Positions 17,675 to 58,787 of a DNA stretch of 64,000 nt are shown piece after piece. Position numbers and translations under genes: made by a program. Positions within the stretch are counted from its first letter, which is position 1. Every line of letters starts with the position of its first letter. The DNA comes from Gemmatimonadota bacterium (GTDB lineage Bacteria > Gemmatimonadota > Gemmatimonadetes > Gemmatimonadales > GWC2-71-9), in contig QHUM01000039.1 in the NCBI GenBank assembly GCA_003222135.1, forward strand, positions 139,115-203,114. The letters run 5' to 3'. The notes under the pieces were generated by a model. It was not told the origin of the DNA, ran no database searches, and saw nothing but the letters and a program-made list of their open reading frames with translations.

Positions 17675-19795
17675 ATGGCGACCCGGACCCAGCCGAGATC
17701 CAAGGCCGCTAAGGCCCTCGCGAAGCCGGATCTCCTCGACATCTACCGGCTGATGCTGCTGTCCCGCCGGATCGACGACAAGGAGATCCAGCTCAAGCGG
17801 CAGAACAAGATCTTCTTTCAGATCTCGGGCGCCGGCCACGAAGCCGTGCTCGCGGCGGCGGGGCGCGTGCTCCGGCCCGCCTACGACTGGTTCTATCCCT
17901 ACTACCGCGACCGCGCGCTGTGCCTCGCCCTCGGCATGACTCCGACGGAGATGCTGCTCTCGGCGGTGGGCGCGGCGGAGGATCCCAACTCGGGTGGCCG
18001 GCAGATGCCGTCCCACTGGGGTCACAAGGCCCTCAACATCGTCAGTCAGTCGAGCCCCACGGGCACGCAGCTGCTGCAGGCGGTGGGCTGCGCGGAGGCC
18101 TGGCTCCGCTACACCGGGATCGACGGCATCACCGACAAGCCCGTCAAGGGCGACGAGCTCGTCTACGTCTCGGTCGGCGACGGCACGACGAGCGAAGGGG
18201 AATTCTGGGAGGCGCTCAACAGCGCGAGCAACTTGAAGCTGCCGGTGCTGTTCCTCGTCGAAGACAACAAGTACGCGATCTCGGTCCCCGTGGAAGTCCA
18301 GACCGCCGGCGGCTCCGTGTCGAAGCTGGTCAGCAACTTCCCGGATCTCCTGGTCGCGGAGGTGGACGGCTGCGACCCGGTGGCCTCCTACGAGGTGCTC
18401 CTGCGCGCGGCCGAATACTGCCGGCAGCGCAAGGGCCCCGCACTCGTGCACGCGCACGTCACCCGTCCGTATTCGCACTCGCTCTCCGACGACGAAGTGG
18501 TCTACAAGCCGCCCAAGGAGCGCGAGGAGGAGGCGAAGCGCGACTGCACGCTCACGTTCCCGAAGCGGCTGATCGCCGAGGGCGTCGCCACCGAGGCCGA
18601 GATCGCCCAGATCCGTCAGCAGGTGGACGAGGAGATCGAGGTCGCGGCCGACATGGCCCTGGGCTCTCCCCAACCGACGCCGGAATCGGCGCTCAAGTAC
18701 GTGTACTCTCCGGACGTCGACCCGACGTCGGAGCAGTTCGACACCGAGGACGACCCCCAGTTCTCCGGCGATCCGACCACGATGGTGGACCTGCTCAATG
18801 CGTGCCTCAAGGACGAGATGGCACGCGATCCGCGCATCGTGATCTTCGGCGAGGACGTGGCCGACGTGAGCCGCGAGCAGTACCTCAAGGACGTGAAGGG
18901 CAAGGGCGGGGTCTTCAAGGTCACGTGGGGGCTGCAGCGGCAGTTCGGCAGCGAGCGCGTCTACAACTCGCCCCTCGCCGAGGCCAACATCGTCGGTCGG
19001 GCGATCGGGCTCGCCACCCGCGGGCTCAAGCCCGTCGTCGAGGTCCAGTTCTTCGACTACATCTGGCCCGCCTACCACCAGCTGCGCAACGAGCTGGCCA
19101 CGATGCGCTGGCGCTCGAACAACGCGTTCAGCGCCCCCGCCGTCGTGCGCGTCACCTACGGCGGATATCTCAAGGGCGGCGCCATCTACCACTCGCAGAC
19201 GGGGGCGGTGGTCTTCACGGCCATTCCCGGATTGCGCGTCATCTGTCCCAGCACCGCGCTCGACGCGAACGGCCTGCTGCGCACCGCCATCCGTTGCGAC
19301 GATCCCGTCCTCTTCCTCGAGCACAAGCACCTCTACCGCCAGACCTACAACAAGGCGCCCAACCCGGGCCCGAACTTCATGATTCCGTTCGGCAAGGCGA
19401 AGGTCGCGCGGTCAGGCGCGGACCTGACCGTGGTGACGTACGGCGCCGTGGTACAGCGCGCGCTGGTCGCGGCCAAGGAGCTCGAGGAGAAGGACGGTGT
19501 AAGCGTGGAGGTGATCGATCTGCGCAGCCTGTCGCCGGTGGACTGGGATACCATCGGCGAATCCGTGCGCAAGACCAGCCGCGTGCTCGTCGCGTACGAA
19601 GACGCGCTCTCGTGGGGCTACGGCGCCGAGATCGCGGCGCAGATCGCGGGCGAGTGCTTTTCCTGGCTCGACGCACCCGTGACGCGCGTGGCCTCGACCG
19701 ACACGTTCGTCGGGTACGCGCCCGCGCTGGAAGACTTCATCCTGCCTCAGGTGGAGGATCTCGCGCGGGCGATGCGCGAGCTGCATGCGTTCTAG
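17675..19795 (+). CDS. 2-oxoacid dehydrogenase E1 component, fused alpha and beta subunits (TPP-dependent)
   Basis: The alpha part has the [18 protein letters not shown]-binding motif. The beta part reads FGEDVAD...[20 protein letters not shown] and continues with a C-terminal transketolase-like domain. The start is ATG 17675. Confidence 0.9.
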
Positions 19796-27522: not shown

Positions 27523-30063
27523 ATGCCGGTGGCTGTTTCCATGCTCGCCCTCATGGTCGTCGTGCAGGCGAACGGCAGCAGCGCCGAGACGGCGCCGGCT
27601 CGGACGCCTCCACCCACGGCGAACAGTGTCGTCGCCCGGCGGGCCATGCGCGCGGTCGTCATCGACGGTAAGGACGATGACGCGGTGTGGCGCGAGGCAC
27701 CGGCGATCACGGCGTTTCGCGAGTTCTCGCCGCGCGAGGATGGGCCCCCCCGATTTCCCACGGAAGCCAAGGTCGCCTACGACGACCACAACTTCTACGC
27801 CTTCATCCGCGCCTTCGATCCGCATCCCGACAGCATCCTGAAGATTCTCGCCCGCCGCGACGTCCGCGCGCCCACCGACCAGATCAAGATCGTCATCGAC
27901 TCCTACCACGACCGGCGCACCGGGTACGAGTTCGCGGTAAACCCCGGTGGGGTGAAGCGCGATTATGCGATCTACAACGACAACAACGAGGACGATGCGT
28001 GGGACGGGGTGTGGGAGGTGGCGACGACCGTGGACTCGCTCGGCTGGACCGCGGAGTTCCGGATTCCGCTGTCGCAGCTGCGATACGCCCACGCCGATAC
28101 CAACACCTTTGGCTTCGCGGTGTGGCGCGACATTCAGCGCTACACCGAGCGGGTCAGCTGGCCGGTATACCGGCAATCCCAATCGGGGTTCGCTTCCCAG
28201 CTCGGGGATGTGACGGGTCTGGTGGGACTGCCGGCGCCGCGCCGGCTGGAAGTCGCGCCGTACATGGTGACGAAAAACGTCTCAGTGCCCGTGGGCCCCG
28301 GGTTCGACCGTTCCCAAAAGCTCACCGCGGGCGCGGACCTGAAGTATGGGCTCACGTCCAACGTGACACTCGACGCAACGGTCAACCCCGACTTCGGGCA
28401 GGTCGAGGCGGATCCCGCGGTCTTGAACCTCACGGCCTTCGAGACGTTCTTCCAGGAACGGCGCCCGTTCTTCGTCGCGGGAACGGGTGTCTTCCGCTTC
28501 GACGTCAACTGCAGCCAGGTGAATTGCAATGGGGAGCGGTTGTTCTATTCACGCCGCATCGGGCGGGCGCCCGAGCTCCCCGGGAACGACCCGGGCTCGC
28601 CCATCGCCACCACCATCTACGGCGCAGCAAAGGTGACCGGCCGGCTGCCGGGTGGTCAGACCGTGGGCGTGCTCGACGCCATCACGCAGCGCGCCACGGG
28701 GAGCTCCGATCGCACCACCGAGCCCGCCACCAACTATGCGGTGCTGCGCGGGCAGCAGGATTTCCGCAAGGGACAGAGCGGCGTCGGCGTGATGTTCACG
28801 GCGGTGAACCGCAGTCTCGACCCGCTGACCGACGGCGGGCTGCGCCACAGCGCCTATGTTGGCGCGGTGGACTTTCGGCACCGGTTCCTGGGGAGCCGCT
28901 ATCAGGTCTCGGGCTCGCTCGACCTGAGCCACGTGACGGGCACCGCGGCGGCCATCACGGCGACGCAGCGCGACGCGGTGCACTACTACCAGCGGCCGGA
29001 CGCCGGCCTCCCCTTCGACTCGACCAGGACCTCACTGGCGGGCGACGCGGAAGAGCTGCTCTTCGGCAAAGTGGGCGGAGGGATAACCCGGTTCGAGACG
29101 AGCTATCAGCGGCGGTCCCCGGGCTTCGAGGTGAACGACCTCGGCTTTCTGCTGCGGGCCGACCAGCAGAGCTGGAATACCTGGTTCGGAGTGCAGTCGC
29201 TCCATCCGAGCTCGCTGTATCAGACCGCGTTCTGGAACTTCAACTGGTGGCAATTCTGGACGGGAGCGGGGCTGCCGGTCGAGCGCGCCGCCAACACCAA
29301 CGTCCACGTCCAGCTCAACAACCGGTGGTGGCTGCATGCCGGCACGACATTGGGTCACCTCGCCCCGACCTTCGACGACCGTCGGGCTCGCGGGGGCCCC
29401 GCCGTGCGGGTCGATCCGATCGTCTCATCCTGGGCGGAGTGGGACGGGGACAGCCGGCCGGCTGTGGTGCCTGCCCTGTGGACGAACTATTGGCGTGGGG
29501 ACGGCGGCCGGTCTGAATCGGTCAACCTGGGCTCGCAGGTGTCGGTCCGCATCGCGTCGCAGTTCAACACGACGATCGGCGTGAGCGTTACCCACAACAT
29601 CGACAACACCCAGCCGTTCTCTCCCGTCACGGACTCCGCCGGCACCACACACTACCCCCTGGCCCACCTGGACCAGAAGACCTTGTCGCTCACCGGGCGG
29701 GTCGATTACACCATAACGCCCGACTTGACGCTCCAGATCTATGCCCAGCCGTTCGTGAGCAAGGGCACGTATTCGAACGCGCGCGAGCTCGCCAATCCGC
29801 GCGCCGCGGCGTACGACGACCGGTTCAAGCCGTACAGCGGCACGCTCGCCAGTGGGTTCAATTTCAAGCAGTTCAATTCCAACGTCGTGTTGCGTTGGGA
29901 GTATCGGCCCGGCTCGACCCTGTTCGTTGTCTGGACGCAAGGGCGGAACGACTTCCTCCGGGCGACAGGAACGCAGTCGCTCGCCGGTGACTTTGGCGAC
30001 CTCTTCACGCTCCACCCCAATAACACCTTCCTCGTGAAAGCGTCGTACTGGCTGAACTGGTGA
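27523..30063 (+). CDS. DUF5916 / CBM9-like outer-membrane protein
   Basis: It has a signal-like N-terminus. IDGKDDDAVWREAPAITAFREFSPREDG...AKVAYDDHNFYAFIRAFDP matches the CBM9-like head of DUF5916 proteins. A long beta-rich body ends in an aromatic residue (YWLNW). Confidence 0.8.
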   Translation: MPVAVSMLALMVVVQANGSSAETAPARTPPPTANSVVARRAMRAVVIDGKDDDAVWREAPAITAFREFSPREDGPPRFPTEAKVAYDDHNFYAFIRAFDPHPDSILKILARRDVRAPTDQIKIVIDSYHDRRTGYEFAVNPGGVKRDYAIYNDNNEDDAWDGVWEVATTVDSLGWTAEFRIPLSQLRYAHADTNTFGFAVWRDIQRYTERVSWPVYRQSQSGFASQLGDVTGLVGLPAPRRLEVAPYMVTKNVSVPVGPGFDRSQKLTAGADLKYGLTSNVTLDATVNPDFGQVEADPAVLNLTAFETFFQERRPFFVAGTGVFRFDVNCSQVNCNGERLFYSRRIGRAPELPGNDPGSPIATTIYGAAKVTGRLPGGQTVGVLDAITQRATGSSDRTTEPATNYAVLRGQQDFRKGQSGVGVMFTAVNRSLDPLTDGGLRHSAYVGAVDFRHRFLGSRYQVSGSLDLSHVTGTAAAITATQRDAVHYYQRPDAGLPFDSTRTSLAGDAEELLFGKVGGGITRFETSYQRRSPGFEVNDLGFLLRADQQSWNTWFGVQSLHPSSLYQTAFWNFNWWQFWTGAGLPVERAANTNVHVQLNNRWWLHAGTTLGHLAPTFDDRRARGGPAVRVDPIVSSWAEWDGDSRPAVVPALWTNYWRGDGGRSESVNLGSQVSVRIASQFNTTIGVSVTHNIDNTQPFSPVTDSAGTTHYPLAHLDQKTLSLTGRVDYTITPDLTLQIYAQPFVSKGTYSNARELANPRAAAYDDRFKPYSGTLASGFNFKQFNSNVVLRWEYRPGSTLFVVWTQGRNDFLRATGTQSLAGDFGDLFTLHPNNTFLVKASYWLNW

Positions 30064-53288: not shown

Positions 53289-53380
53289 GAGGGGTCGCTG
53301 CCGCGCAAGCTCGGGACTGTGGCGTGGCGTGTCAAGCGCGACTATCCTTCACGCAACCGAGCCCCCTCGCCCTCAATCGT

Positions 53381-53620
53381 ATGCGCGTCACCATCGAATA
53401 CTGTGTCGTCTGAAACTACGAACCTCGGGCCGCCGGTCTGGCGGCCGAAATTCGCAAGGCCCACCCGCACGCGGACGTCAAGCTGATCCAATCCTCGGGC
53501 GGCGTGTTCGAAGTCGAGGTCGACGGGCGCCGCGTGTTCTCCAAGAAAGCCCTCGGGCGTCACGCCGAGCCCGGAGAAGTGCTGCGCCTGATTGAGAAGA
53601 TGGCGCCGCCGGCGCGTTGA
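53381..53620 (+). CDS. Rdx (SelW/SelT/SelH) family selenoprotein; TGA 53411-53413 decoded as selenocysteine
   Basis: Reading through the TGA gives MRVTIEYCVVUNYEPRAAGLAAEIRKAHPHADVKLIQSSGGVFEVEVDGRRVFSKKALGRHAEPGEVLRLIEKMAPPAR. The IEYCxxU and GGxFEVxVDG pattern is typical of Rdx proteins. A SECIS hairpin follows. The gene is absent from the ORF track because the TGA splits it. Confidence 0.8.
53425..53448 (+). promoter_or_regulatory. Bacterial SECIS-like stem-loop
   Basis: A 7-bp GC stem (53428-34 paired with 53440-46) has apical loop GGUCU. Two further pairs lie below a 1-nt bulge. The stem starts 14 nt after the UGA. Confidence 0.7.
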
Positions 53621-54687
53621 GAATCGCGATCTCCACCGGCGGCGGCGACGCCCCGGGGTTGAACGCCGTGATCCGCGGGTCCGTGCTCGCCGCGATCCAT
53701 CGAGGCTGGGAATGCGTCGGCATCAGGCGTGGCTATGACGGGCTGCTCGACGAGGACCGCGTCGTCGTGCTCGACGCCAACGCCGTCCGCGGCATCACCC
53801 ACCTGGGCGGCACCATCCTCGGCACGACCAACCGGGGCGACCCCTTCCGCTGGCGCGGACAAGGCGCCGACGGCAGCGCGATCGAGCACGATCGGGCCGA
53901 CGAGCTCGTTGCCGCCTTCCGCCGCAAGGGCATCGACGCCCTCATCGCCATCGGGGGCGACGGCTCGCTCCGCATCGCGCAGCGGCTGTTCCGTGAGAAG
54001 GGGATTCGCGTCGTGGGCGTTCCCAAGACGATCGACAACGACGTGGGCGGCACGCAGCTCACGTTCGGATTCGACACGGCGGTCCAGACCGCCACCGAAG
54101 CGATCGACAAGGTCCACTCCACCGCTGAGAGCCATGAGCGCGTCATGGTCGTGGAGGTCATGGGGCGCCACGCCGGATGGATCGCGTTGCACTCCGGCAT
54201 CTCCGGCTCCGCCGACGTGATCCTGATGCCCGAGATTCCGTTCGACATGAGCAAGGTGTGCGAGAAAATCGCCCGGCGCGAGGCGGAAGGACGCCACTTC
54301 AGCATCGTCGTCGTGGCCGAAGGAGCCGCTCCCCGGGGCGGGAGCGTCTCGCTTATCGACCCGGAGCACCAGCGCCTCGGCGGCATCGGCGACAAGGTCG
54401 CGCACTCGATCCAGGAGATGACGGGCAAGGAGACGCGCAGCCTGGTGCTCGGGCACTTGCAGCGCGGCGGCAGCCCGACGACGTTCGATCGCCTGCTGGG
54501 CTTGCGCTTCGGCGCCGCGGCAGTGCGTGTCATCGCCGACGGGAAGTTCGGCACCATGGTCGCGCTGCGTCCTCCCACAATCGCACCGATCTCGATCGAC
54601 GAAGCGCTCGCCGCTCCGAAGACCGTCCCGCTCGACTCCGACACGATCGCTACGGCGCGCGACCTGGGGATCTCCTTGGGAGACTGA
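53617..54687 (+). CDS. pfkA: 6-phosphofructokinase (PfkA family)
   Basis: Motifs present: STGGGDAPGLNAVIRG, IGGDGS, GVPKTIDNDV, EVMGRHAGWIAL. The TTG start overlaps the selenoprotein stop (TTGA). Confidence 0.9.
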   Translation: MRIAISTGGGDAPGLNAVIRGSVLAAIHRGWECVGIRRGYDGLLDEDRVVVLDANAVRGITHLGGTILGTTNRGDPFRWRGQGADGSAIEHDRADELVAAFRRKGIDALIAIGGDGSLRIAQRLFREKGIRVVGVPKTIDNDVGGTQLTFGFDTAVQTATEAIDKVHSTAESHERVMVVEVMGRHAGWIALHSGISGSADVILMPEIPFDMSKVCEKIARREAEGRHFSIVVVAEGAAPRGGSVSLIDPEHQRLGGIGDKVAHSIQEMTGKETRSLVLGHLQRGGSPTTFDRLLGLRFGAAAVRVIADGKFGTMVALRPPTIAPISIDEALAAPKTVPLDSDTIATARDLGISLGD

Positions 54688-55599: not shown

Positions 55600-55653
55600 T
55601 TCCCGCTTCCTCCTCGATCGAGAGCTTGAACCAATCTATCTATATTGCGGGCG

Positions 55654-58206
55654 ATGCGAGTGTCGCGCGACCACTTCCTTCCTCCCGATCCCAAGGCCTT
55701 TCTCGCCGCCGAGCCCTCGACCGGGCGGGTCGTCGTCATCGCCCCGACCCGGGCGGCGTGCGAGACGATCGAGCTGGCGTTCGGCCTGAACATCGACACG
55801 CTGCTCGCGCGCGAGCACGGCGGCGACATCGACCGCCTGGCCGCCTCGGGGCGCGGGTTCGGCATCGTGGCCGGCACCGGCACCGGGAAGACGCTCGCGA
55901 TCCGCTCGATCGCCCAGACCATCCTGGGGGCGCCCCTCAAGGTCGGCGTCGTGAACCGCGAGCGCGAAGCGACGCCCGAAACGCCGACCTGGAATGTGGT
56001 GATCGTCACCACGGGCATCGCGCGCCGCTGGTTCGAAGACGGCCTGATCACCGAGCGCGACACGCTCGTCGTCGACGAAATCCACCAGACGTCGGCGGAG
56101 CTCGAGCTCTGCCTCGCGCTCGGCAAGCGGGCCCGGTGCCGCTTCATCTGGCTCTCGGCGACCGTGGATCCGGCCTTCTACGCCCGCTACCTCGCCTCGG
56201 TCGAGGTGCTGGAGACCCGCGCGTTCGACCCGGCGAAGGCCGCTCAAGTGCGCGTGCTTCCCCAACAACCGCTCGAGTTCCTGAACGAGCGCTTCGTCAA
56301 GCAGGTCATGCGCGAGCGGCGCGGCGTGGCCGTGTTCGTCCCGACCCGTGCTGAAGTCGAGCAGATCGCGCGGGAGGTCGGTGCACGTTGGCAGGCCTTG
56401 CCCACGGCGTTCTATCACGGCGGCGAGCCGATCCGGGTCATCCGCCCGTTTCTGGACGGCGAGGTGCGGCGCCCGTTCCTGCTGGCGATGACCGCGGCCG
56501 GCCAGTCCGCCCTGAACATCCGCGGTCTCGATACGGTGGTGATCTACGACGCCCGCTACACCAACGTCGTGGAGCGGGGCCGCAACGTGCTGACCCGGTT
56601 GTACCTCGGCGCGAATGAGATCCTCCAGATGGCGGGCCGGGTGCACGGCCGCGTCGCAGGCGGCGAGGTGCACATCCTCTCGGACCGCGCGCTCGATTTC
56701 GAGCGGCTCGTGCCGACCCCGCCGGAATTTCAGCTCGCAGGCGACGCGGAGCGCGTCGCGATCACCTGCGCCGCGCTGGGCGTGGACGCGCAAGACCTCG
56801 ACTTGCCCGTCCCGCTCGATCGCAAGGCGTATCGCGACGCGCTCGAGCTCCTGACGGAGCGAGGGCTCATCGAGCGGGGCCGGCTGACGCGCTACGGCCG
56901 GGAAGTCGAGGCGATGCCGGTCGAGCGGCCGTGGGGCGAGCTCCTCTATCACGCGGAGGGCGAGCTTACGCCGATCGTGGCGGTCACGGCCAACATCGAC
57001 TCGCTGCACCGCATGACCCGGGAGGAGCGGGACCTGAAAGGGCTGATCGTGCCGGGGAGCGATCACCTCACGGCGTACAACGTGTTCGCCGAGGCGGTCA
57101 ACAAGCACGGCTACCTGGGGGAGGTGTACGGCCTGCCGCGCCATCTGTTCCGCGAGAGCGTCGATGCCTGGGCCGAGGGTCGCGGTGTGCTCGTCAAGGC
57201 GATCGAGGACGTGGCGCTCGGGACGGCGTCGGTGTACCGCCAGCTGGAGCTGCCGCTCCCCGAAAGGCTCCCCTATGCAGGCGACAAGATACTGGCGGCC
57301 TTCGCCGACTTGGTCGCGAAGATCATGCCATTCGACCTGGTGATCGACGAGGAGACGGCGGACGGGCGCGAGGCGCGAGTGAGCCGCGGATCGGTGTGTG
57401 GCAGCTGGGGGGCGGTCGCCGGGACGCTGCGCTACTTCGCGGACCGGTTCGGCGTGCCGCGCGCCAGCATCGAAGGCACCCAGCTCCCCGAGCGTGCCTT
57501 GCGCCGCTACGCACGGCGGGGCGCCCCGGGTGTGGTGTTCGAGCGGCAGCGTCGGCGTGAGGGCCTCATGGTGGTGCGCACGGTCGAGTACTGCGGCTTC
57601 GTGCTGGAGCGGGAGGTCGAGCCGCTGAGGAGCCCGTTTCCGGCGGACCTCGCCGCCGCTGCCCGTACGGCGTTGGTCCAGGCGCTGCTGGCCGGAGAAA
57701 CGCCGCATCCCGACCAGGGACGCATACGCAAGGCGCTGGAGCGCTTCGGCTTCTACTGGCGGCGCTCGGGGGGAGGGCTCGCTGAAGCGGCCACCGAGCG
57801 ACTGACCGCCCGCCTCGCCGCCCAGCTCGAAGGCGTGACCTCGTGGGACGAGTTCATCAATACGCGCCTCGTGCTCGACATCGACGCGTCGGTCCCCGAG
57901 GGCCTGCGCCACGAACTCGACGCGCTGCCGTCCTCGATCCACCTGTACGGCGACCGCGTCCCCGTGGACTACGAAGTGGAGCGCGGCGCCGGCGTGATAC
58001 GGCTGCGCCTCAAGGAGGGACAGGCGCGCCGGCTACAGCCCCGCGACCTGCCGCCCCTCGATCGTCCGGTGCGCTTCACCGTGCTGCGTGGCAAGCGTGA
58101 GGCGGTGCGTGCCGACACGCTCGAGGACCTGAGGCGCCAGCTCAGCAGTCTGTCGCGCGAGGAACGAGTCCGCCTGGTGCGCGGCGGGCGGCGGCGCCGG
58201 CGCTAG
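55654..58206 (+). CDS. DEAH-box (HrpA/HrpB-like) ATP-dependent helicase
   Basis: Walker A is AGTGTGKT and motif II is VVDEIHQTS. SAT and the QMAGRVHG motif VI region are also present. The long C-terminal extension is unrelated to families I recognise. Confidence 0.85.
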   Translation: MRVSRDHFLPPDPKAFLAAEPSTGRVVVIAPTRAACETIELAFGLNIDTLLAREHGGDIDRLAASGRGFGIVAGTGTGKTLAIRSIAQTILGAPLKVGVVNREREATPETPTWNVVIVTTGIARRWFEDGLITERDTLVVDEIHQTSAELELCLALGKRARCRFIWLSATVDPAFYARYLASVEVLETRAFDPAKAAQVRVLPQQPLEFLNERFVKQVMRERRGVAVFVPTRAEVEQIAREVGARWQALPTAFYHGGEPIRVIRPFLDGEVRRPFLLAMTAAGQSALNIRGLDTVVIYDARYTNVVERGRNVLTRLYLGANEILQMAGRVHGRVAGGEVHILSDRALDFERLVPTPPEFQLAGDAERVAITCAALGVDAQDLDLPVPLDRKAYRDALELLTERGLIERGRLTRYGREVEAMPVERPWGELLYHAEGELTPIVAVTANIDSLHRMTREERDLKGLIVPGSDHLTAYNVFAEAVNKHGYLGEVYGLPRHLFRESVDAWAEGRGVLVKAIEDVALGTASVYRQLELPLPERLPYAGDKILAAFADLVAKIMPFDLVIDEETADGREARVSRGSVCGSWGAVAGTLRYFADRFGVPRASIEGTQLPERALRRYARRGAPGVVFERQRRREGLMVVRTVEYCGFVLEREVEPLRSPFPADLAAAARTALVQALLAGETPHPDQGRIRKALERFGFYWRRSGGGLAEAATERLTARLAAQLEGVTSWDEFINTRLVLDIDASVPEGLRHELDALPSSIHLYGDRVPVDYEVERGAGVIRLRLKEGQARRLQPRDLPPLDRPVRFTVLRGKREAVRADTLEDLRRQLSSLSREERVRLVRGGRRRRR

Positions 58207-58256
58207 GGGGATCCCTCAGGCGGATGTGACCTCGGCGCGATGGGGGGGTCCTCTCT

Positions 58257-58787
58257 ATGGCGGCGGTGCTGCCTGAAACTCTGACCCTGCATCCGAGTAT
58301 GCAATCAGGTATGCCACAACAACGAGACAAGACTACCAGCGCTCCACCTCCGCTCTCCTTCGCGCCCCTCGGCCAGGCGGTCTTGGAGTCGTTCGGCGAG
58401 GGTGTGGTGGTGTTCGACGCCTACGGCCGGATGATCTACGCGAACCAGCGTGCGCGCCGAGTGGTGGACAGCTTGGGCGACCCGACGTTCCTGCGCGGCG
58501 GTGCCCTGCGGGAGCGGCTCGTCAGCCTGGGCGGCCGACCCCAGTCGCTGAAGCAGGGCGCTGCGGACCTCGGTGAGGCGATCTTCCTGGCCGACGGCGA
58601 TCACGCGAAGACACTCGCGGAGCGCGAACGGCTGGCGATCCTCGACACCCTGGAACAGACGCACGGCAAGCTCGCCGAAACGGCGCGCCGGCTCGGCATC
58701 AGCCGCACCACGCTGTGGCGACGGCTGCGCGCCTACGGCCTTCGGCCCGACGCGCGCGGCAGCCACGGACCCACAGTGCGCGCGTAG
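58257..58787 (+). CDS. Fis-type HTH regulator with a PAS-like N-terminal segment (no AAA+ domain)
   Basis: The C-terminal segment ERERLAILDTLEQTHGKLAETARRLGISRTTLWRRLRAYGL is a Fis-family HTH. The start codon is uncertain. Confidence 0.7.
   Translation: MAAVLPETLTLHPSMQSGMPQQRDKTTSAPPPLSFAPLGQAVLESFGEGVVVFDAYGRMIYANQRARRVVDSLGDPTFLRGGALRERLVSLGGRPQSLKQGAADLGEAIFLADGDHAKTLAERERLAILDTLEQTHGKLAETARRLGISRTTLWRRLRAYGLRPDARGSHGPTVRA

Follow-up and report, generated by a model that had tools for sequence, protein, structure and literature searches.

Can an interval in which gene finders call nothing hold a complete selenoprotein gene? This question is raised by the DNA between an MCP gene and the phosphofructokinase gene pfk in a 64,000-nt stretch of contig QHUM01000039.1 from a Gemmatimonadota bacterium (the whole stretch analysed, hereafter the window). 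A reading of the letters of this DNA, referred to below as the sequence-only reading, had proposed that the interval encodes a SelW-like protein of the Rdx family with selenocysteine (Sec) at an in-frame TGA, that a selenocysteine insertion sequence (SECIS) hairpin follows the TGA, and that the gene is translationally coupled to pfk. Translation from ATG 53381 through TGA 53411-13 to the terminal TGA 53618-20 returned the 79-residue peptide quoted there, with all coordinates correct, and automatic callers also leave the interval blank in six near-identical metagenome contigs. The comparisons presented below indicate that the frame from ATG 53381 is very probably a genuine Sec-encoding gene of the SelW-like (Rdx) family, split at the Sec codon by open reading frame (ORF) finders, and that it was missed because its TGA "stop" codon encodes selenocysteine. 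The support for Sec is comparative, at the standard of selenoproteome surveys (PMC1088965, PMC1794560), and is strong but indirect.

A SelW-like frame across an in-frame TGA

Orthologous loci were gathered by scanning one genome per GTDB species, which yielded 80 loci of about 20 kb each, all from Gemmatimonadales metagenome-assembled genomes (MAGs); 79 of these were readable, and the closest orthologue was 96% identical to the window protein, which places the window in this order. In line with the proposal, conservation extends across the TGA. Codon 11 is TGA in 78 of the 79 species and TGC in the remaining one (L058), with zero frame breaks in the alignment. The ATG ten codons upstream of codon 11 is kept in all 79 species, as is the pattern M-x-V-T-I-E-[YF]-C-V-[VI] that precedes it. 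Codons 2-5 are each represented by three or four synonymous codons with the amino acid unchanged, the signature of a translated sequence. Three more distant Sec forms (L093, L095 and L097) also carry TGA, and TGC or TGT occupies the Sec position in L058, L089, L090, L091 and L096. Database entries for the three distant Sec forms show W in this column, which is TGA translated under an alternative code; the L shown in one further entry (L092) is a real CTG codon.

Genome-wide reassignment of TGA (genetic code 4 or 25) was ruled out, since TGA terminates 13 of the 29 confident ORFs of the window, the SelW-like gene and pfk included. Since TGA works as an ordinary stop codon in this genome, recoding is local.

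Membership in the Rdx (SelW/SelT/SelH) family is established. Hidden Markov model (HMM) searches, in which Sec was entered as Cys, bore out the family signature named in the sequence-only reading: the scores were 74.1 bits for Pfam PF10262 (E=1e-20; cutoff 22.6), 102.3 bits for NCBIfam NF041051 'SelT/SelW/SelH family (seleno)protein' (cutoff 88) and 61.2 bits for TIGR02174 (cutoff 34.2). When the ten residues upstream of the TGA and the Sec position itself are left out, the Pfam score is 49.5 bits; these residues thus add 24.6 bits. All sequence matches in the PDB were Rdx proteins, the nearest being bacterial (Atu0228, 2FA8, E = 2e-9; SAV_2001 and others). The fold was modelled with AlphaFold on the natural Cys-type homologue P0002, which is 81% identical to the window protein. 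The model (pLDDT 92.6) has the topology beta1(2-8)-CxxC-alpha1(14-27)-beta2-beta3-beta4-alpha2, and Foldseek aligned it with a template modelling (TM) score of 0.91 to 2FA8 and 0.71 to mouse SelW (2NPB), with thioredoxins more remote and all matches at E <= 0.001 belonging to the Rdx family. Every one of the 79 species has Cys8, and the redox motif of the model lies at the end of beta1 (residues 2-8), ahead of alpha1 (14-27). The C8-x-x-U11 centre is predicted to have selenol/thiol redox activity. Coordinates of the gene and its associated features are collected in Table 1.

Table 1. Features of the SelW-like locus, in window coordinates.
Feature	Position	Strand	Remarks
SelW-like (Rdx family) coding sequence, probable selenoprotein	53381..53620	+	79 residues; predicted Sec at codon 11; stop TGA 53618-20; HMM scores and 79-species frame
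Redox motif C8-V-V-U11 (TGT GTC GTC TGA)	53402..53413	+	End of beta1, directly before alpha1
In-frame UGA, probably read as selenocysteine	53411..53413	+	TGA in 78/79 orthologous species, TGC in 1/79
Putative SECIS apical hairpin	53428..53446	+	Stem 53428-34/53440-46; loop GGUCU 53435-39; weaker lower extension 53419-53454
Phosphofructokinase gene (PFK_mixed type)	53617..54687	+	TTG start overlaps SelW-like stop (TTGA); Pfam PFK 1e-107; TIGR02483 446 bits
Promoter-like non-coding block	53319..53348	+	-35-like GTGGCG 53319-24; 18-nt spacer with invariant GTGTCAAGCGCGAC; -10-like TATCCT 53343-48

Two further observations concern the surroundings of the Sec position. Synonymous variation is low close to the UGA (53396-53419, codons 6-13), with GAA at codon 6 in 70 of 79 species, GTC at codon 9 in 77 and AAC at codon 12 in 72, which hints that the sequence context of the recoding site may be constrained beyond the hairpin described below. 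Separately, the locus with the CTG codon (L092:1251-1481; P0016, P0018) naturally encodes Leu in place of Sec (CxxL), and its hairpin loop no longer has GGU; this variant is presumably redox-inactive, or works via its single Cys.

The hairpin downstream of the UGA and the reading of codon 11

The hairpin proposed in the sequence-only reading, a 7-bp stem with a GGUCU loop 14 nt past the UGA, forms the core of both the minimum free energy (MFE) and the centroid folds. Only synonymous sites are informative about its conservation, because the peptide A-A-G-L-A-A already fixes four of the six core pairs. At these sites the apex codons are frozen, a constraint at the RNA level; the comparative data set the hairpin apart from chance where folding energy does not. 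In the set of 79 distinct coding sequences of the Sec type, GCC is used at codon 18 by all 49 that have Ala there, and codons 19 (GGT), 20 (CTG) and 21 (GCG) are each the same in all 79. Codons for other invariant residues vary within the same gene and tree, with GGT 27, GGA 21, GGC 21 and GGG 10 at Gly65, five codons at Leu35 and four at Ala31, and the other conserved four-fold codons have an entropy of 1-1.9 bits. Furthermore, only a minority of the Gly codons of the SelW-like gene are GGT, and GCG is not its preferred codon for Ala. GGT stands in the loop in 81 of 82 TGA forms, against 2 of 6 Cys or Leu forms (Fisher p = 3e-5, for sequences that are not phylogenetically independent); the other four non-Sec homologues carry GGC, GCG, GCT or GCG instead. 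Conservation of the hairpin among Sec-type orthologues was thus found at the frozen synonymous sites, together with loss of GGU from most non-Sec forms, and was almost absent from covariation. The lower helix (53419-27/53447-54) is poorly conserved, and we regard the apical stem of 6-7 bp and the loop as the only likely functional element.

The resemblance to the SECIS of E. coli fdhF, also noted in the sequence-only reading, was confirmed against E. coli K-12 DNA. Counted from the U of the UGA, the GGUC loop starts at nt 22 in fdhF (UGA140) and at nt 25 here, one codon further. Both are hairpins within the coding sequence immediately 3' of the UGA, and in both the apical GGUC provides the G and U that SelB contacts in fdhF. 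In contrast to fdhF, the window loop is displaced by +3 nt (G26/U27 rather than G23/U24) and has five nt instead of four, and the upper stem comprises 6-7 G-C-rich pairs without the conserved bulged U, an optional bulged G being present in the MFE fold only. By analogy, the window hairpin may act like the fdhF SECIS, which is not to claim that the SelB contacts are identical.

Several observations weigh against Sec insertion directed by this hairpin. Its folding energy is unremarkable (z = -1.0; 32 of 200 shuffles fold equally well or better, at 70% GC), and the stem comes partly free, since the Ala codons of A-A-G-L-A-A fix four of its six core pairs through their first two positions. Covariation is essentially null: four of the seven pairs never vary, and an unvarying core makes the analysis uninformative. 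The pair changes that do occur in the stem, a G-C to A-U double change at one pair in two species and a C-to-U wobble at one pair in eight species, count in favour of the hairpin. An A.C mismatch is present in the stem of 27 of 75 distinct hairpin sequences (the Thr-18 clade). The loop of the distant Sec form L097 (55% identical) is GGG, not GGU. Conversely, a distant Cys-type homologue with no pfk nearby (L096:4001-4213; CAPC) keeps the GGUCU hairpin with compensatory changes (GCG GCT ... GCT GCT); this is possibly a fossil SECIS left after Sec-to-Cys conversion, of a kind described previously (PMC1794560). As for the Sec machinery, no selA, selB, selD or tRNA-Sec was found within the 64-kb window or the 80 orthologous neighbourhoods. 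Searches by tblastn with E. coli SelA, SelB and SelD gave no match at 1e-5 in the window or any locus, Rfam returned only noise on the window and on 53300-53700, the window contained no tRNA, and Pfam assigned 20 further window ORFs to ordinary metabolic or housekeeping genes, none of them selenium-related. In the literature, including the supplements of a 5200-genome survey (PMC5029168), no statement was found on Sec use in Gemmatimonadetes/Gemmatimonadota.

ARAGORN did call tRNA-SeC genes (anticodon TCA) about 7.8 kb downstream in two loci (L061:17840-17940 and L083:17831-17925). These are false positives inside the ispH/LytB coding sequence: Rfam finds no tRNA there even at E <= 10, and the differences between the two loci, a 6-nt indel that keeps the frame and changes at third codon positions, follow a coding-type pattern. 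Such calls in ispH are a caution for automated assignment of the Sec trait in GC-rich genomes.

Three other explanations were considered for codon 11 and its hairpin. If the TGA were a real stop, the locus would yield an N-terminally truncated Rdx fragment from a downstream start, or would be a decaying pseudogene. Database entries of relatives (GenBank MAGs, JGI metagenomes) are indeed mostly truncated forms of 46-65 aa, and an account without Sec would sit comfortably with the lack of Sec machinery in the DNA covered. Truncation is nevertheless extremely improbable in view of the ATG and ten upstream codons, which are kept in every species with the synonymous variation of translated sequence and lift the Pfam score from 49.5 to 74.1 bits, and of the complete lack of frame-breaking changes across 80 independent assemblies. 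Moreover, the earliest canonical start after the TGA, at codon 42, would give 38 residues devoid of beta1, alpha1 and beta2, three of the six secondary-structure elements.

Recoding of the UGA to something other than Sec, whether by near-cognate read-through (Trp or Cys) or by a Cys-charged tRNA-Sec-like tRNA with the hairpin as a generic stimulator, would likewise be compatible with the lack of sel genes in the DNA covered, and the natural Cys homologues imply that a Cys product would be functional. Cys insertion would favour change of TGA to TGC or TGT, yet 78 of 79 species keep TGA; the loop equals the SelB-contacting GGUC of fdhF at nearly the same distance, its GGU specifically accompanies TGA and has disappeared from most Cys or Leu forms, and many bacteria are known to use Sec in this family (PMC1088965, PMC1794560). 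Taken together, we judge non-Sec recoding quite improbable. The remaining explanation treats the hairpin as a by-product of A-A-G-L-A-A in GC-rich DNA, with no function at the RNA level and any Sec insertion achieved by other means. The Ala codons that fix four of six core pairs, the z-score of only -1.0 and the negligible covariation all speak for it, as does a stem that often still forms in non-Sec homologues. It is highly improbable given that all five apex synonymous sites are frozen in 79 distinct sequences, the rare GGT and the non-preferred GCG included, when the same amino acids vary elsewhere in the gene, and that the GGT of Gly-19 has given way to GGC, GCG or GCT in four of the six non-Sec forms.

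Under the preferred reading, in which codon 11 specifies Sec, expression would begin upstream at a promoter-like block (Table 1) located in the divergent intergenic region between the SelW-like gene and the MCP gene (minus strand, start 53288). The block, (T/G)TGGCG-N5-GTGTCAAGCGCGAC-TATCGT, lies almost unchanged ahead of the ATG in about 79 species, and the divergent region is only about 63 nt long in most of them. A generic sigma-70 scan did not call this block, and its promoter function is putative. In most species the -10-like TATCGT ends 7 nt ahead of the ATG, as would fit a leaderless SelW-like mRNA; the clade of the window has about 30 extra nt. No Shine-Dalgarno motif was found ahead of the SelW-like gene in the 79 species. 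Transcription would start at this conserved block, which the divergent MCP gene shares, and give an mRNA with a short leader in the window's clade, and a leaderless one in most relatives, in both cases lacking a Shine-Dalgarno sequence. Translation would begin at ATG 53381, and at codon 11 a SelB-type elongation factor carrying Sec-tRNA(Sec) would bind the hairpin 14 nt downstream so that UGA is decoded as selenocysteine. The predicted product is a 79-residue thioredoxin-like protein whose C8-x-x-U11 centre would cycle between the selenol/thiol and selenenylsulfide states, reducing or oxidising a partner. Ribosomes terminating at UGA 53618-20 could then restart at the overlapping TTG 53617 and produce PFK from the same mRNA.

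The overlap with pfk and the surrounding locus

The pfk ORF comprises 356 codons, and TTG 53617 is its earliest possible start; this start is sound because the next in-frame start would lose the N-terminal GGGD motif. The TTGA stop/start overlap described in the sequence-only reading is present, and a 4-nt NTGA overlap is conserved in 46 of 79 species. The overlapping pfk begins with TTG or GTG in all 46, and two more species have a 1-nt spacer. Shine-Dalgarno-like motifs at the overlap are weak or absent. The overlap, the weak start codons and the want of a well-placed Shine-Dalgarno sequence make translational coupling of the SelW-like gene and pfk plausible. In one locus (L009:6395 onward) the SelW-like frame is continuous with pfk and the first 48 PFK residues are absent, which may reflect deletion/fusion or a MAG assembly error.

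Pairing with pfk is not obligatory, and this counts against a fixed link between the two genes: about 30 of the 79 species (~40%) have no pfk at this position, and in these the helicase-like gene comes next, sometimes only 20-75 nt away. Across species the conserved frame of the locus is MCP(-), SelW-like(+), [pfk(+)], [DUF2167(-)], helicase-like(+). An Rdx-PFK pair is also present in a distant lineage (L093 and L095; 63-72% identity) among other neighbours (OmpA-like, peptidase S9), separated by a 20-42 nt spacer and with ATG as the pfk start in L095. The occurrence of the pair in a distant lineage with different flanks argues for more than accidental adjacency. Rdx-PFK adjacency is frequent, re-occurring and dispensable.

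The PFKs linked to SelW-like genes contain exactly two cysteines, C33 and C215, which are invariant in the 45 of 45 linked PFKs examined, the distant lineage included. Both are absent from characterised PFKs; the same columns hold Val and Ile in Geobacillus PFK. These cysteines may mark a redox-client relationship or may be plain lineage inheritance, the comparison being one among linked PFKs only. A functional tie between selenoprotein and PFK, by which PFK synthesis would be selenium-gated and/or the CxxU protein would be a dedicated redox partner of PFK, is a tentative idea that we consider unlikely as it stands. The rationale for gating is that a weak TTG/GTG start without a good Shine-Dalgarno sequence overlaps the SelW-like stop, so that the ribosomes arriving there would mostly be those that had decoded UGA11.

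Farther downstream, window positions 55645-58206 (+) encode a protein of about 850 residues with only faint DEAD/Helicase_C similarity. Across the order this helicase-like gene invariably follows the SelW-like gene or pfk, and it may belong to the same transcription unit because of the 20-75 nt spacing where pfk is absent. Just past it, at 58227-58290, a TGA followed by a G-rich hairpin (GGGGGGGTCC...) recurs in L001, L002, L006 and L008. As a selenoprotein site it was rejected, since it is intergenic; it is probably a terminator-like element. A scan for other in-frame TGA codons followed by a GGTC-loop hairpin, run over the window together with some 1.5 Mb of related DNA, left the SelW site as the cleanest, the rest being off-frame, antisense or intergenic. 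Matches within real genes at 29514 (DUF5916 gene) and 39226 (aconitase-family gene), and one at 19379 antisense to an E1 dehydrogenase gene, were rejected as off-frame or antisense.

Relation to known Rdx proteins and significance

Bacterial SelW-like CxxU selenoproteins with an intragenic SECIS have been catalogued in many genomes since 2004-2006, and they were the most abundant selenoprotein family in Sargasso Sea data, with 48 genes (PMC1088965, PMC1794560). The window gene resembles them in its single domain of about 75-80 residues, its N-terminal CxxU, its UGA followed by a hairpin within the coding sequence with a G in the small apical loop, and the rarity of Cys homologues among close relatives. 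It differs in its origin from soil Gemmatimonadales, for which no published selenoproteome was found, in the 4-nt overlap with pfk and in its apparently leaderless, Shine-Dalgarno-less mRNA.

The CxxC Rdx proteins Atu0228 (2FA8), SAV_2001 (3DEX), P. fluorescens 2OBK and V. cholerae 2P0G share the fold of the P0002 model (TM 0.86-0.91, root-mean-square deviation 1.0-1.8 A) and carry the redox motif in the equal position; in contrast to the window protein they have Cys in place of Sec and are about 20-25 residues longer. The start of alpha1 also differs, reading RA(A/G)W(L/M)AQE in the CxxC proteins and RAAGLAAE in the window clade, where the corresponding RNA would double as the SECIS. Mammalian SelW (2NPB) and MIEN1 (2LJK) share the Rdx fold (TM 0.71-0.76) and the position of CxxU/CxxC, whereas the SECIS of mammalian SelW is of the eukaryotic type, lies in the 3' UTR and has no operon context. 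Mouse SelW has been reported to bind the glycolytic enzyme PKM2 (PMC10943047). As the enzyme and the organism are different ones, this is a loose parallel to the linkage with pfk and cannot count as evidence for what the window gene does.

Both the protein family and its mode of recoding are thoroughly familiar, and NCBI keeps a dedicated '(seleno)protein' model, whose cutoff the window protein passes. Mild novelty lies in the apparently ubiquitous occurrence of the gene among soil Gemmatimonadales, in its conserved pfk overlap and in the C33/C215 pair of the linked PFKs. To our knowledge, bacterial SelW-like proteins have no known function, and a conserved operon with a glycolytic kinase is a concrete functional lead for them, though a modest one, as about 40% of species have no pfk at the locus. 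For annotation, a corrected, full-length selenoprotein would be added to some 80 Gemmatimonadales species genomes. Furthermore, the finding would imply that Sec decoding is a widespread trait of this major soil order, for which no published selenoproteome was found.

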